A stretch of DNA of 35,716 bases from Bipalium vagum (Eukaryota): contig JBBMKC010201716.1 of the NCBI GenBank assembly GCA_037834085.1, forward strand, positions 1 to 35,716, in the 5' to 3' direction. The notes below the pieces were generated by a model that was not told the origin of the DNA, searched no databases, and saw only the letters and a list, made by a program, of their open reading frames with translations. Of the stretch, positions 4,423-31,150 are shown piece by piece. Both the position numbers and the translations under genes were made by a program. Position 1 is the stretch's first letter. Every line of letters starts with the position of its first letter.

Positions 4423-4553
4423 NNNNNNNNNNNNNNNNNNNNNNNNNNNNNNNNNNNNNNNNNNNNNNNNNNNNNNNNNNNNNNNNNNNNNNNNNNNNNN
4501 NNNNNNNNNNNNNNNNNNNNNNNNNNNNNNNNNNNNNNNNNNNNNNNNNNNNN
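4423..4553. other. Assembly gap (131 N)
   Basis: Run of N. Confidence 0.99.
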
Positions 4554-6180: not shown

Positions 6181-6830
6181 TTAAGGTGTTCCATAAGTAA
6201 TCTACCATTTTAATTTAATTTTATAATTATACATTATTAATTAATATTATTATATTAAAGTCAATTATAAAGTTTATTTTAAGTTGCTATCATTTTTAAA
6301 AAACCTTCGTTCCAGATAATCCGCTATAGAACGAAAGAGGTGGTAATCAGATGGTGCTAGATTTGGACTATATGCTTGATGAGGAATCATTTCAAATCCA
6401 GCAAGTTCATCCATCTTTGTCATTGTTCTTTTTATCTATGTGTGGTCTTGCATTATTTTGTTGTAAGAGGATATGTTCTCTGTTGATCAATTGTGTGTAA
6501 CATTGAACACTGTTTTGTGAACACGATCTAATTGTTAACAATAAACTCCAGACCTTATCGGATAACCGTCTGGAATTAATTCAATATGTATGATGACCTC
6601 ATAATATAAATTAGAATTTTCTTTTTCAACCATGACTGCTTAACGACAGGTACCAATGGCTCACCAAGTAGATGCCATTGTTTCTTGTTATCAACGAACA
6701 CATAATAAATCCTCTTTTCGTCACATGTAACTATTTTTCGCCAAAACCCAGTGTTCCTTGAATAGTTCAGTAAGACTTGACAAATACGTACACGTTTTTT
6801 TGTTTTTCAGGTATTAAATCATGAAGTATT
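6181..6830 (-). mobile_element. Decayed mariner (DD34D) catalytic-domain fragment
   Basis: FWRKIVTCDEKRIYY, LLQQNNARPH and PHQAYSPNLAPSDYHLFRSI. TIR-like TA|TTAAGGTGTTCCATAAGTAAT at 6181. Confidence 0.9.
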
Positions 6831-12649: not shown

Positions 12650-13814
12650 GTTGAGATAGCCATTACTGTACTATCAACCGTTTTCAGTCTTATTGTTGCT
12701 ATAATGGATCTTGTTCCTGATTATCATAAGAGAAACTTGTTGTCAACTATTTTGTGATCTCTTTACTAATTAGATTTGAACGTACAGAGTAATCTATCAT
12801 GTACTTCTCCTTGAATGTCTATCTGACTTCAGTTAAAAATTTTGATCAATGCTGATAATTGATATTCATCTTTTTGATGTCCTGTATTTTCTTCTTATAA
12901 TTTTTTTCCCTGCTTCATTAGCCTATAATCAGTAGAATTACACCACTGTTTACAATTGTACAATAGATGGTAAAGGAATGCATATGGATCTTTAATATGT
13001 TTAGCAATTTTTTTCTGTTAACAAGTTTTTATTGAAATATATATTTTTTAATTAAATTATTCTTTTATTTAGAATGTATTTAATAAATATATTTAGTTCC
13101 GCATTCCATTGATAAAACAAACTTTCAGAAATGTCAGAAGTCATACATGTATTACCATTATTATGGTAAGAAATAGGAAATTCCTTAATACCACGAAAAC
13201 AGAGCGGGTTTTTTGATTTACCAATCACCAAAAGAGGACCTCTTTCACTACTCATACTAGCACAGATCAACACTGTTATGCGATCCTTAGACATTTTTCC
13301 ACCAGACATTTGACTTTCTTTAAAAGTATGAGACCCATTCGGTTGGGCACGCCAGTAAATTCCTGTATTATCTGCTTTATATATATCATCTGGATTATAT
13401 CTCAGTAATAATTGACTGACAACAGAATAATTTGCATAAAATTTTTCACCATGATATCTTTTATACACTATACCGTTGAGTTTCGTCCATCTTTCAAGCC
13501 AACCATTAGTAGCAGAAAAATCATTAATATTTAAATCATAAATATTAAATAAATTAACAAAAGATAATAAACTTGTATGATTTCATTAACTAAAAATTAT
13601 CCAAAATATGTATTATTAAAACAATAAGAAAAAAATGTGATATAATCAGGTTTTAGTACATAAACTGTAGCACATTTTCGTGATATTATCCCGTATTTTG
13701 ATATTAACCGAAGTGATATAAAACAGTTTAAAACATTAAATTTACATGCCGATTGGCAGTTGGTTTTCAGTGCACCATGATATTATCCGATGTGATATTA
13801 AGTGGGTTTGACTG
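12650..13814 (-). mobile_element. Decayed pogo/Tigger element with 5' TIR
   Basis: 5' end TA|CAGTCAAACCCACTTAATATCA at 13814 with repeated GATATTA(T/A) subterminal motifs. Translation: DFSATNGWLERW...YHGE; DDIYKADNTGIYWRAQP; GGKMSKDRITVLICASMS; LLVIGKSKNPLCFRG. The 3' boundary is approximate. Confidence 0.9.
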
Positions 13815-16071: not shown

Positions 16072-16602
16072 CTGACAGTGAATGATTAGGTCTTCTAATT
16101 TATGGCCGAGCGCTACATAAGACCTATTCGGTACGCTCTCTAAATAAGCACCCATATTCATAAAGCTTGATGACCGTTCATAGTTTTCAGTGAGATTTTG
16201 ACGAAAATAATGCTCAACAGCGTACCTATTAATGCTATGGGCGAACTCGCGAGGGGTTTTTATTTTAAATTTATCCAGAATTTTCAAGATATTTCTCGTC
16301 ATCGGTCTAAAATTACATACCGTCAATGACGGAAACGGAGCTTTGCTTTCGCTTAGAATTCGCGGAGGATGAATTACATTATATTCTAGAAACTGCAAGC
16401 ATAGAAATATTATACAAACAATAAAGCCGATGAATAAAAATATAAAAAATGTTAGCCATAAATAACGAATATGAGTTTTACGTGATTTTACAATTCTTGG
16501 AACCCCTCTGATTGTTGTATTTTCACAGAACCGTAAAAATTCTTCTTTATAAATGGTTTTAAAATTTATTATTAAACCTTCTTCAACGTTTGTATTATTC
16601 AT
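16072..16602 (-). CDS. First coding exon (177 aa) of a DEG/ENaC-family amiloride-sensitive sodium channel (FaNaC/ASIC-like)
   Basis: Translation has pre-TM1 FCENTTIRGVPRI (family F..TT.HG..RI), hydrophobic TM1 YLWLTFFIFLFIGFIVCIIFLCLQFLEY, post-TM1 FPSLTVCNFRP (family FPAVTxCN) and GHKLEDLIIHC. An in-frame TAA lies 3 codons upstream of the ATG. A phase-0 donor CAG|GTAAAT sits at 16072/16071, after which the ORF turns into AT-rich intron-like sequence. Confidence 0.92.
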
Positions 16603-18602: not shown

Positions 18603-19450
18603 CATGTTGTGTAAAAAGTCAGTTCACCCCATATAATATATATATATTTTTATATATATTTCGATTTAGTTAAAATTATTTGTTTAAATATTTAGTGATA
18701 GTGTAAGTCATTATAATATATTTTGAAATGATACATAATTACATGGTTTTAGACCAATATAATGTCTAGAAATTTAACAGTATTTGTTGCATAATATGGT
18801 ATATATGTATTAAGGAATAATGGAAAATCTTGGACAGAAATACTTAGTTAGCTCATGAATTGTATGAAAACTACAGCCAAATGCGACATGCAATATGTAT
18901 TGAAGAAACATCTAAAAACAGAATCCAAGCGAGATAAGATGAGAAATGGCAGAGCAACTATTGTTTCACCCCAATCTTCACGGGCTATAAGACTAATTTA
19001 CAAAGCCAATCGCTTATAAGCTGTCCATAATATTACCCTTATGTACAATACAAGTTCTGTCCAAAATCTATCTATCAGTACAGTCCAGAAAATTATGAAA
19101 TAGTACGTTTTTTGAAGTTATGCAGCAATTAAGAAGCCATACTTGAAAATGCATCAACGTCTAGGAAGACTTTCGTGGGTCAAGACACACGGTTCTTGGG
19201 ATGCAGATAAATGGAGAAATTTGGTATTCAGCGACGATTGTTTCTTTCAGTAATATTTGTCAGCAAATAAATTATTGATTCAAAAACCGCATTGGAAAAG
19301 TACAACTCTGCCTTAAACCAACCAGTTATTGGACATGGTGCATTCATACATGTCTAGTGCTGCTTCAACAGTAATGAAGTTGGATTTCTGAAAAGAACCA
19401 ATGGGAATATGAATGCCGAGAGATATCAAAAACAGATACTTCATGACATG
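18603..19450 (+). mobile_element. Decayed Tc1-family transposon (5' two-thirds)
   Basis: TA|CATGTTGTGTAAAAAGTCAGTTCACCCC TIR-like start; GKSWTEI...RNGRATIVS; KKPYLKMHQRLGRLSWVKTHGSWDADKWRNLVFSDD; VGFLKRTNGNMNAERYQKQIL. Confidence 0.88.
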
Positions 19451-20592: not shown

Positions 20593-21344
20593 TTGGGTTG
20601 TCCAATAATAAATGAGATTTTTAAGAAAACTTTATTTTACAAAAATAACAACCCATCAATCATCAAAGTACAGTCCGTATTAGATAACACCTTTGTCTTT
20701 CAATCAGATATTTTTCGAATTTGGTCAAAGTATCAACTTTGGCTTAGAAGTATAAAAGTCACTACATGCCACTTCCACTTGCTCAACATTGTTAAAACGC
20801 TTCCACCTCTTAGAAAGTGTTGCATTACCGGAACAAGCCATAATCTCTTGGGGAACAAGATGGATCTGTAAGATGGATATGACAAAACTTTCAATTCATA
20901 CAGGTCTTTGTATTTTTTACGTTAATTTCTTATGGTGAGCGATCGGGTGTTATCCTATCGATACACATTGTTCATTGAGATAACGACTGAGTAATTTCTC
21001 ATGAACACAGTTGAGTTGCTCGCAGAAGAAGAATGAGCTCAAAACGAATAACTCTCTCAAAATTCCAACCGATAGAAAGCATCAGTTTTTTGGTTGACAG
21101 ATCAGGTTTTTCATCTAGTAAACTTTGTATTTTTTACAAAATTTACAAAACAATTAATTTTTCATGATCTTTGAAGATTTGTTTAAAGTTTACTTTCGAT
21201 TTTTTGATTTTTAATTAATATACAATTAGATAGAGTATGAAATACTTTTTCAAATGAAAAATGCTATACGTTATTGTCCATATTTAATGCTTATAGGCAG
21301 AAATTATTAGTAAAAAATACGTCACTTATTATGAGACAACCTAA
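20593..21344 (-). mobile_element. Internally deleted mariner with both TIRs (752 bp)
   Basis: TA|TTGGGTTGTCCAATAATAAATGAG and reverse TA|TTAGGTTGTCTCATAATAAGTGAC. C-terminal pieces PYPSY...PRDYGLFR, FNNVEQVEVACSDF-like and GLYFDD*. Confidence 0.88.
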
Positions 21345-21439: not shown

Positions 21440-22060
21440 CGCATTTCAATAAATGAAAACAAATTTTTTCTAAAACATTTATCATCATGAGACATGTTTC
21501 GAACTACTATTAGTTCATCATCAGTCATTCATATTTGAAACTACACACTTTAATTACCAAAACGACGATTTAATTTTTTCATAATTCTGAATCGTGGAAA
21601 TTATTAATATTTTCTTATTTTAAAAATAATTTTTAAAAAATTAATCCGAGAATACATTGACAATCCATTGGTTTCTACTTTTTCCTGTTTGATCTCTGGG
21701 TGCCGCTCTTTATTTAATAACGATTCGCATATCTTCCGCTCATCGTTATTATCAAAATTATTCATAATTACTCGAAATTCTTCAGCGCTAACTTTACCTT
21801 TTCGAACAGCACAATTCAATAAATGATCTAAAACTTTCCTGCTTAATTGCGAATGTTCACTAATACGTGTTCTGAAGTGACGCTGTCTCCCATGTGTATA
21901 GACTATTACACCCATGATATTTAAATTCATATACTATATATTCGCTTGTAATATTGCAGGTGTTGGCGTTTTAATTTTTAAATAACTTTTTGGTTTGGCT
22001 ACATTGAAAATACTTTTAAATCTTCAAGCTCAACACCTTTTTCTATTATGTTCTTAAATG
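21440..22060 (-). mobile_element. 5'-truncated Penelope-like retroelement: GIY-YIG endonuclease C-terminus plus 3' region with hammerhead
   Basis: Across two frameshifts: KSYLKIKTPTPAILQANI / VYEFKYHGCNSLYTWET / RHFRTRISEH...DHLLNC...ERKICESLLNKERHPEI. This matches the PLE GIY-YIG pattern NVVY.F.C..C...YIGET.RHL.TRI.EH...ESL.I....P.LN. Confidence 0.85.
21487..21528 (-). ncRNA. Minimal type I hammerhead ribozyme (Penelope-associated)
   Basis: Minus strand reads AUGA-CUGAUGA-U-GAACUA-AUAG-UAGUUC-GAAA-CAUG-UC-UCAU. It has a full catalytic core, a perfect 6-bp stem II, a palindromic mini stem III (ACAUGU), a GUC cleavage triplet and a 4-bp stem I (AUGA/UCAU). It lies directly 3' of a GIY-YIG remnant. 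Confidence 0.88.
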
Positions 22061-23639
22061 TTCTAAATCCATTTGAAAAAAAAACTATTTAATTAACTAT
22101 TTAAAAAATTTTTTAAAAATTTTCTTTTCAATACATTAATTTTTTAATATTTTTAATTAATTAATTATTATATTCTACAGATATTAAAATATTATATATC
22201 AAAATTATAATAATAATATAATATTAATATAAATAAATATACAATATAAGTTTCATATAAATGATTAGAAAAATAAACAAACTTATCATTAATATTAACA
22301 ATACAAAAATTTTACTGAGAATTATTACGATTATCTAAGTGCGTAATAAAAGTAACATTGCACATTATTGTTTTTTATACTTAATTACCATTATCCTATT
22401 AATTATCATTTTATTGTTATTTTTATAATAGACTATCTACTTAATTATGTTCTGAATGAATATAATTCTTCAATTTAACATGCTGTAATCACGTATTGAA
22501 AGGGAAACTGCAACGAAACAATCAATGATTTCCATCAGAGTTTTAATTGGGATTGCTTATCAAAAATATTTAATTAGTGTTATATTAAGTAAATAAAATT
22601 ATAAATGTCAAGAAATACCTACAATTGTATGTCAGACTTTTTGATCATATTTTTAAACCTAAAGTGTTTACATAATCATCAATTAACTCATTATACAACA
22701 TTCTTTTTTAACCATTACTTATTTACATCTTTTTAATTTAATCTAGCTGGGTTAAAAATATAAACCAACTTTAAATTATCTTCAATTCTTAGCACAAAAT
22801 TACTAGAACGATTACACGTAAACGTTCGAAAGAAAAATGAAAAGCTTTAAAAATAATAAATAAAATTGCATAATTCATTTTTAAAGTATAGGCTGATGGA
22901 TATGTGAAATCTTCGTATTAATACCAAACTCGGATTAGAAGACTTTACTTACATCTATAACTATAAGACGCTAATAAATTTGTTCATCAATCTGTATCAT
23001 TGTACTTTTATAGGACCTGTAATAGTTAGAAGTACCAATGTCTTTTGCTACCAAGTACGTCTATTAGTACGCGATTAAATCGGATACTCCATTGGAACTT
23101 CTTCCCAATGGTTCATTGAAACTTTGTCATTAAAGCAAAGATTAGTAATCTAGCACTCCGATTTCGTCCCTTTAATTTAGTAAGACATCAAAGCGTGTTT
23201 TGTAGATGAGCCAATCAGGCGAAATATCAAGACTAATTGCTGAGTTGAGACTTCGGATCTGATCAACCATATTCTTTTGGACGTTTAATCTCACCATGAA
23301 CCGACTGAAGATTGATCAGGGAACTAGATAGAGAAGAAGAGTCACAACCTTGTAGAAGATCCCATATGGTTGATCTCCATCGGTTCTGTGGCCTGATGCT
23401 CTCACTGGTGATATCCCGATGTTAGCTTAGATCTTATAAATATGATAATGAGAAAAATTCAAAATCAAAAGCAGAAGACAAATAACTACGGATGAGAATA
23501 TCAGAAATCAATCAAAACGAAGAAAAACTACTTTTATGCTGTGATATAATGTGATAAAATTAATAAATCGTAATAAATTATTTCCTGAAATATTTGAGAA
23601 ATAATTAAAATAAACAATATTTTTACAAAAGAAATATGT

Positions 23640-23725
23640 ACATATTTATTTCCCACCGCTTCGCAGTGTTTGCTCCCATCTTTTGGGAAACATATGGATT
23701 TCAATTTGAAAGAAATCCTTCTAGC
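23640..23725 (-). mobile_element. Mariner C-terminal fragment
   Basis: KDFFQIEIHMFPKRWEQTLRSGGK (cf. FF..GI..LP.RWE.V..S.G.Y). Confidence 0.65.
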
Positions 23726-23729
23726 TTCA

Positions 23730-23865
23730 TACCTATAATCACCGTGTAATCACAAATCTAAAGTTTCAATGGAAAAATTTTAAAAGTTGCACTTGAATTA
23801 GTTCCACATCCGCCCTATTCTCCAGATCTTGCTCCACCAATTTTTTCTGTTTTTCTGTTCCAAAC
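23730..23865 (+). mobile_element. Mariner catalytic fragment
   Basis: HKSKVSMEKF...ELVPHPPYSPDLAP, containing the exact mariner YSPDLAP motif. Confidence 0.85.
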
Positions 23866-24459
23866 AATAAATTTATATGAATCCTGCGCTTGTCCCCGTG
23901 GCTAATCCGAATGTTTTTATGGTGTGGTAAGATGTAGCTTTCAGGTGTTTCTTGGTCTTTTTTATCGTTTGATTTGAAACGTATTTAAATTTTTATATAT
24001 ACATAACAATGAAAATAGATTTTATATATTACTATATATTATTTTTTTTATATATTATTATATAGTTTATATATAGTTATACTTATAAAATTTTTAAAAA
24101 TGATAAAATTTGTTTGTAAAAATCATATTTTGATAAAAAAGATGATCGTACATTTGTTGTAACACTTTCTATTGATAATCTACGTATATATTAAATTATT
24201 TTACATATATTTCTATATTTAGTAACATTGATACTTCCATACTTATTTTGATATTTAGTTTTCTTTGCAGTATTTTTCAATAAAAAATAATTAATTAATT
24301 AATTTTAATTAAAGAGAACGAATGAAAATGTTTTTAATGTATATTTAAATTTACATCATAAAAATCTGTTTTAATAAAAATAAAATGTTTTATTCACAAC
24401 ACAAGAATAAAACAAATATTCGATACACACAGAAAAGAATGTTGTTTCATGAAAAATTT

Positions 24460-30719: not shown

Positions 30720-31150
30720 AAAAATATTTTGATTCATCACTAAAGATTATATAATTCCAATCGACAGTGAAATGCTAATTCTTGTGGTGTTATTGGATAA
30801 TGTCTTTCTTAAACATTGCTTTGGACGGTATGAGTGCTGACCAATACTATTCAATCGTCGATATGTAGTGATAATGGACACCTCTTTCTGAAGATCATTT
30901 TTCAATTTTATGGTGAGTATAAATCGGTCTCTTGCAGCTAGAATATGAAGTTGTCTATCTTCATAATCCTTGGGACTACGATCTTTTCTGCTACAACTGG
31001 AACGGTGCATATCTTGCATATGTCCATAAATAGTGAAATTTTTTCCAAGTGTTTGGTGATATCTTGGATACGTATTTCACTTTCATGAAGTTTTAGTATT
31101 AAACATCCTTTAAGATTCGTTTGTCTTATTCCACTCTACTCGTATTGCTA
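30720..31150 (-). mobile_element. Tc1-family N-terminal half
   Basis: LILKLHESEIRIQDITKHL; EDRQLHILAARDRF...VSIITTYRRLNSIGQHSYRP; DWNYIIFSDESKI (first catalytic D). Confidence 0.82.

Follow-up and report, generated by a model that had tools for sequence, protein, structure and literature searches.

The DNA analysed here, a contig of 35,716 nt from Bipalium vagum (JBBMKC010201716.1 of GCA_037834085.1, referred to below as the window), carries on its minus strand at 21487..21528 a minimal type I hammerhead ribozyme motif which is almost certainly the hammerhead of a Penelope-like element (PLE). What is shown directly is the motif with its place and strand, the endonuclease remnant behind which it lies, and a matching layout in related elements. 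We propose that this hammerhead is idle and has stayed intact by chance within a 5'-truncated and broken PLE copy, a reading to which we assign a probability of about 75%.

The hammerhead motif

The motif is read directly from minus-strand positions 21528..21487 (42 nt). Stem I consists of four pairs, all Watson-Crick, between AUGA (21528-21525) and UCAU (21490-21487). It is followed on the minus strand by the core C3-A9 (CUGAUGA, 21524-21518), by one extra U (21517) and by the 6-bp stem II, also entirely Watson-Crick, which begins with the pair G10.1-C11.1 and in which GAACUA (21516-21511) pairs with UAGUUC (21506-21501) across AUAG. The GAAA at 21500-21497 corresponds to G12-A13-A14-A15.1, and its last nucleotide opens the palindromic ACAUGU of stem III (21497-21492), which is made up of this A, the CAUG insert and U16.1. 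C17 lies at 21491, placing the predicted cut at 21491/21490, as had been claimed in an earlier reading made from the sequence only. The complete core, the single extra U, the perfect stem II and the self-complementary ACAUGU described in that reading were all present on re-reading and in a descriptor scan. The motif contains every position of the consensus core (C3-U4-G5-A6-N7-G8-A9, G12-A13-A14, A15.1-U16.1 and H17) together with the palindrome at 15.2-16.2 plus loop 3 (ACAUGU), a stem I within the range of 3-5 bp (4 bp) and a stem II within that of 4-8 bp (6 bp), and it is located on the sense strand behind the PLE ORF, following the decayed YIG motif at a distance of 374 nt.

A covariance model (R2), trained on 10 other loci with the window left out, ranks this site first at 33.2 bits (E 0.00019, a rough value) while the next site reaches 13.2 bits. 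The assignment as a type I hammerhead stands with both R2 and the descriptor scan. A second, degenerate motif at 22686-22657 was dismissed, its R2 score (13.2 bits, E 1.4) being no better than chance. The motif had been thought to be the sole copy here and this is borne out, as the descriptor scan of both strands gives one core position and a separate core-box search concurs, with no second hammerhead copy found by either method in the window.

Both minimal hammerheads and those with a small palindromic helix III have been described from the PLEs of metazoans (Cervera and De la Pena 2014, PMC4209133), and according to that account the extra nucleotide, the G10.1-C11.1 pair and the palindromic stem III are the standard for PLE hammerheads. 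The same source reports hundreds to thousands of such motifs per animal genome, with about 2,000 minimal hammerheads, mostly single, in Schistosoma mansoni, and its Table S1 includes 5'-truncated PLEs with a 3' hammerhead only, among them an example from the planarian Schmidtea mediterranea. On the basis of this literature, every feature pointed out in the sequence-only reading is a family standard. The window motif is like the hammerheads of PMC4209133 in being of type I, with CUGANGA plus one extra nucleotide, G10.1-C11.1, a palindromic stem III, a long stem II, a short stem I and an occurrence as one 3' copy within a PLE that is 5'-truncated. It differs in that the insert of its stem III, the 4-nt CAUG, is that of the small-palindrome variant, whereas the flatworm examples listed there have the strict loop-less form, and in that its stem sequences are particular to its own family. 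The earlier identification, that of a minimal type I hammerhead of PLE type whose stem III is palindromic and of the dimer type, situated behind a dead Penelope fragment, matches both this published consensus and the layout of the relatives described below.

The non-LTR retrozymes are also similar, as they carry type I hammerheads that are dimer-dependent in some species (PMC7229834) and they have been proposed to be non-autonomous PLE derivatives (bioRxiv 10.64898/2026.07.22.740005). However, the window contains no tandem repeat of 170-400 nt and the motif is still joined to endonuclease-coding sequence. The short tandem repeats, each with a hammerhead and without coding sequence, that characterize a non-LTR retrozyme were not found in the window, and this assignment was rejected.

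The Penelope-like remnant

The sequence preceding the motif on the minus strand (21652..22100) is the decayed 3' end of a Penelope-like ORF, containing the remnant of the RT-EN linker and, at the C-terminus, a GIY-YIG endonuclease, as indicated by phmmer, tblastn and DNA alignment. Between the end of the ORF and the hammerhead lies an AU-rich stretch of about 120 nt (21529..21651, minus strand) that we assign by its position to the 3' UTR or pLTR, and the matching stretch in a related locus, L011, measures 144 nt. The minus-strand sequence past the hammerhead (21440..21486) is probably the tail of the element, judging from the PLE architecture outlined in PMC8557442 and from DNA alignment. No target-site duplication or inverted partner was resolvable in the AT-rich flanks, and no pLTR pair, tandem or inverted arrangement was found within the window.

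The 77-residue in-frame piece at 21882-21652 matches 24 proteins at E <= 0.001 (phmmer). When 14 relatives were scanned with Pfam, RVT_1 was recognised in five and a GIY-YIG match was obtained in six, three of these six being above the curated cut-off. One protein with an RT and a C-terminal endonuclease (P0009) aligns with 22020-21673 at 43% over 118 aa (tblastn, E 2.6e-20 within the window). Since similarity to relatives stops near 22080-22100 and tblastn shows no reverse transcriptase upstream in the ORF within the window, the PLE copy is a 5'-truncated 3' end. The remnant itself is not recognised directly by Pfam, and a word-index protein search with the endonuclease frame passed none of 38 candidates; Atlas gives GIY-YIG as a lead (0.89, 15% of members).

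DNA alignment to L011 and L012 reveals two extra bases near 21936, two missing bases near 21884 and a 6-nt in-frame gap near 21841, and the tblastn frames imply at least one further frameshift near 22000-22030. The C-terminal GIY-YIG endonuclease with CxxC...H...H is present as a decayed remnant, in which YTW stands in place of YIG and Tyr has replaced the first Cys of CxxC. The sequence-only reading was correct about a GIY-YIG frame with a degraded YIG, although the two frameshifts it counted become at least three, plus the 6-nt gap. Neither the remnant nor P0009 shows a Cys-rich linker. The remnant appears to fit the Penelope/Poseidon group as that group is defined in PMC8557442, a placement made from sequence features rather than from a tree or an RT. 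Penelope/Poseidon-type EN+ PLEs such as PAc similarly have an RT followed by a C-terminal GIY-YIG endonuclease, with the hammerhead behind the ORF (PMC11167929, PMC8557442), and further likenesses are the AT-rich insertion site and the lack of a Cys-rich Zn-finger linker in the remnant and P0009. In contrast to PAc-type PLEs, the copy in the window, whose clade is a presumed one, is truncated and broken and has neither a pLTR pair nor a tandem.

Related loci

A scan with seven related endonucleases yielded 65 loci, of which 15 have a hammerhead on the same strand 323-537 nt after the YIG motif, compared with three that have one on the other strand. Among the 45 loci that extend at least 590 nt past YIG, only 13 contain a hammerhead and hence most related loci lack one by the strict scan. 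The extra nucleotide is found in 14 of the 15 same-strand hammerheads and CAUG in five, and a palindromic stem III could be read in all 15 with a scan that favoured palindromes. Applied to the 65 loci, R2 gives 25 matches at E <= 0.1, 10 of which are its own training sequences, and 22 of the 25 are on the sense strand. Across 10 related loci, which belong to other organisms and had been selected for their pairing, stem II is paired to 96% and shows 18 double changes. The motif is carried, 323-411 nt downstream, by each of the three loci that resemble the remnant at the DNA level (L011, L012 and L013), and L011 and the window motif have CUGAUGA-U-GA...UC-GAAA-CAUG-UC in common.

Two other observations were made with these loci. 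Hammerheads with the U3-A8 core variant of PMC4209133 are located behind PLE endonucleases at L015:2161, L017:1289 and L048:487, and a single contig (L050 and L051) contains two tandem PLE endonuclease copies with an identical hammerhead 518 nt after each YIG.

Survival of the motif

That the hammerhead is flawless beside a broken endonuclease had been taken as a sign that it may be selectively preserved. To measure decay we took the alignment columns with a conservation of at least 85% among 16 related endonucleases. Ten of the 39 columns compared differ in the remnant, and one further column is gapped, while the relatives themselves differ at 5.5%. This corresponds to a nucleotide decay of about 10.6%, falling to 6.5% (6/35) once four C-terminal columns of doubtful alignment value are set aside. 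Both values come from comparing 35-39 conserved codons with those of distant relatives and not with the consensus of the remnant's own family. The neutral survival of all 35 constrained sites of the hammerhead, allowing for indels, is then 3-10% (5-95% range 0.1-34%), and that of the 13 core sites alone is 17-29%. A survival of 3-10% is low for one test, yet it is unremarkable for a motif that was noticed because it is intact, an ascertainment argument that needs the genome-wide copy number.

As an outside control we used one multi-copy PLE family in which eight copies among 12 loci checked have a recognisable motif. The core, stem II and stem III are kept in five of these eight copies, and in three stem I is kept too, making them wholly intact. 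Stop codons occur in or just before the endonuclease region of two of these three (L025 and L031), in a family that was found via intact peptide patterns and in which young copies are therefore favoured. Whole hammerheads beside broken endonucleases recur, that is, in another PLE family. Given the neutral survival of 3-10% and the two of eight control copies that are intact beside a broken endonuclease, selective preservation is not supported and survival by chance is the likelier reading.

Retention could nevertheless operate at the level of the element, if the copy descends from a non-autonomous PLE subfamily that already had a broken ORF but retained its hammerhead and tail so as to be mobilised in trans. 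This would account for a flawless motif beside an ORF decayed by 6-11%, the insertion being younger than the damage to the ORF suggests, and it would be in line with the proposal of non-autonomous PLE derivatives with hammerheads in bioRxiv 10.64898/2026.07.22.740005. Against it are the lack of a second copy and of a tandem array in the window and the insertion of PAc in vitro, for which hammerhead cleavage is reported to be dispensable (PMC11167929). We consider element-level retention unlikely, at odds of perhaps one in five.

Predicted activity of a lone copy

By nearest-neighbour energies, which ignore tertiary contacts, Mg2+ and protein, the active monomer is at +1.5 kcal/mol versus -8.0 for the best fold, and the strand-swapped active dimer is at -13.6 kcal/mol, which is 2.4 worse than two free monomers. 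With the native flanks the dimer is still less favourable, and in the predicted folds G12-A14 is for the most part engaged with sequence lying downstream. From these energies a solitary copy would not be expected to form stem III or the active fold, and the cutting by dimerisation in trans that had been suggested is disfavoured, as the trans-dimer is predicted to be unfavourable. In published work, a single minimal hammerhead did not cleave in vitro while dimers and trimers showed low cleavage (PMC4209133), and the hammerhead of PAc (Anolis) cleaved only with the protein of the element, with no RNA-seq ends reported at its cut site (PMC11167929). We conclude that the hammerhead in the window is probably idle.

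On the minus strand of the window at 21500-21460, a pairing of the core GAAACAU with an AUGUUUU further downstream is predicted, which would block the active fold. Such a downstream blocker was rejected as a family feature, since the native tail is at <= 5% of shuffles in the window but in only one of nine related loci.

The neighbouring channel gene

A gene for a DEG/ENaC (amiloride-sensitive) channel has its first coding exon on the minus strand at 16073..16602 (PF00858, E 3.6e-19), with 42-48% identity to eight schistosome and monogenean proteins, which makes a flatworm the likely host, and the aligned part is followed by a GT donor. At the N-terminus it falls 50-100 residues short of the eight relatives. 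As no further DEG/ENaC exons are detectable in the 16 kb downstream of 16602-16073, the gene is a fragment unless its next intron exceeds 16 kb. A candidate upstream channel exon near 32376-32245 (minus strand), with which the motif would lie in an intron, was dismissed as a chance match (E 0.085, without the conserved Cys or an in-frame Met), and a non-coding 5' exon of the channel gene may lie upstream. The channel ATG at 16602 is on the same strand as the motif and 4889 nt from the cut site, in agreement with the earlier estimate of about 4.9 kb. The intervening sequence contains 14 AATAAA hexamers, a mariner-like transposase remnant (20728..21133, minus strand; Pfam Transposase_1, E 0.0062, below the cut-off; Atlas first match SETMAR-like, score 0.90, a lead only) and a Tc1-like transposase remnant (19116..19250, plus strand; Pfam HTH_Tnp_Tc3_2, E 0.012, below the cut-off).

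It had been suggested from this arrangement that the hammerhead could cut read-through or 5'-extended transcripts of the channel gene, and the motif might have been kept by the host for this purpose, acting via trans-dimers or a PLE protein. The shared strand, the location 4889 nt upstream of the ATG and a flawless motif whose single-test survival is only 3-10% speak in favour of such co-option. However, agreement in strand is a one-in-two chance, the 14 AATAAA hexamers and the mariner- and Tc1-like remnants lie in between, no upstream channel exon was found (the best N-terminal profile match being at E 0.085), the active monomer and trans-dimer are predicted to be unfavourable, more so with flanks, and the lone minimal hammerhead of PMC4209133 was inactive. 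We consider host co-option very improbable, and the suggested cutting of channel transcripts is not supported, a lone copy being predicted inactive and its published counterpart having shown no cleavage. Marginally less probable again is that the solitary hammerhead is a conditional cutter of transcripts running toward the DEG/ENaC gene, active only with a partner RNA of its family or a Penelope protein.

Chance level of the motif

The window has a GC content of about 25%. In 300 simulated windows (order-3 Markov of the window, both strands) there were no matches with a stem II of >= 6 bp, a palindromic stem III and a stem I of >= 4 bp, and a looser setting gave two matches in 300. In the viral_contigs set there were 10 core-box matches and none of the 10 had a stem II or stem I above 2 bp. 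The curated hammerhead covariance models of Rfam gave no match at E <= 1, and we infer that they overlook such minimal forms; the free 42-mer is not unusually stable on folding (z -1.31). A chance match in AT-rich DNA, to which the Rfam result and this modest z-score would lend themselves, is effectively refuted by the absence of matches in the simulated windows, the score of 33.2 bits versus 13.2 for the next site, a strand and spacing relative to the PLE endonuclease that are those expected, and the identical core in L011.

The window contains additional transposon remnants, which are Tigger/pogo-like transposases at 964-1563 and 13052-13582 (both minus strand; Pfam DDE_1 and HTH_Tnp_Tc5), a Tc1/mariner-like remnant at 30747-31076 (minus strand; weak Pfam match, E 0.0008) and two more judged by eye from their translations to be Tc1/mariner-like (23600-23905, plus strand, and 6576-6806, minus strand). 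An assembly gap of N at 4423-4553 adjoins an (AAT)n microsatellite.

Proposed mechanism and significance

The reading we favour, that of an idle hammerhead intact by chance, can be set out as a hypothetical sequence of events. In the active parent element, hammerheads present as tandem or pLTR copies within a single transcript would exchange strands, two ACAUGU palindromes thereby pairing into a stem III of 6 bp, probably helped by the protein of the element, and cutting would take place after C17. The parent would have used such paired copies to cut its own transcript. We propose that the copy in the window was inserted as a 3' fragment, with no partner copy in the window, and that it then decayed by roughly 6-11%, during which its 42 nt would have escaped mutation, and that it was noticed for that reason.

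If the motif were retained by the host and did cut channel transcripts in trans, it would represent a PLE hammerhead co-opted for gene control, no case of which was found in a thin survey of the literature covering titles and the openings of abstracts. A conditional cutter, if true, would couple transposon activity to ion-channel expression. As found, the window motif matters little, being one more example of an abundant and known motif, and its value is that of a clean example, paired throughout, with which to ask what the role of PLE hammerheads is.
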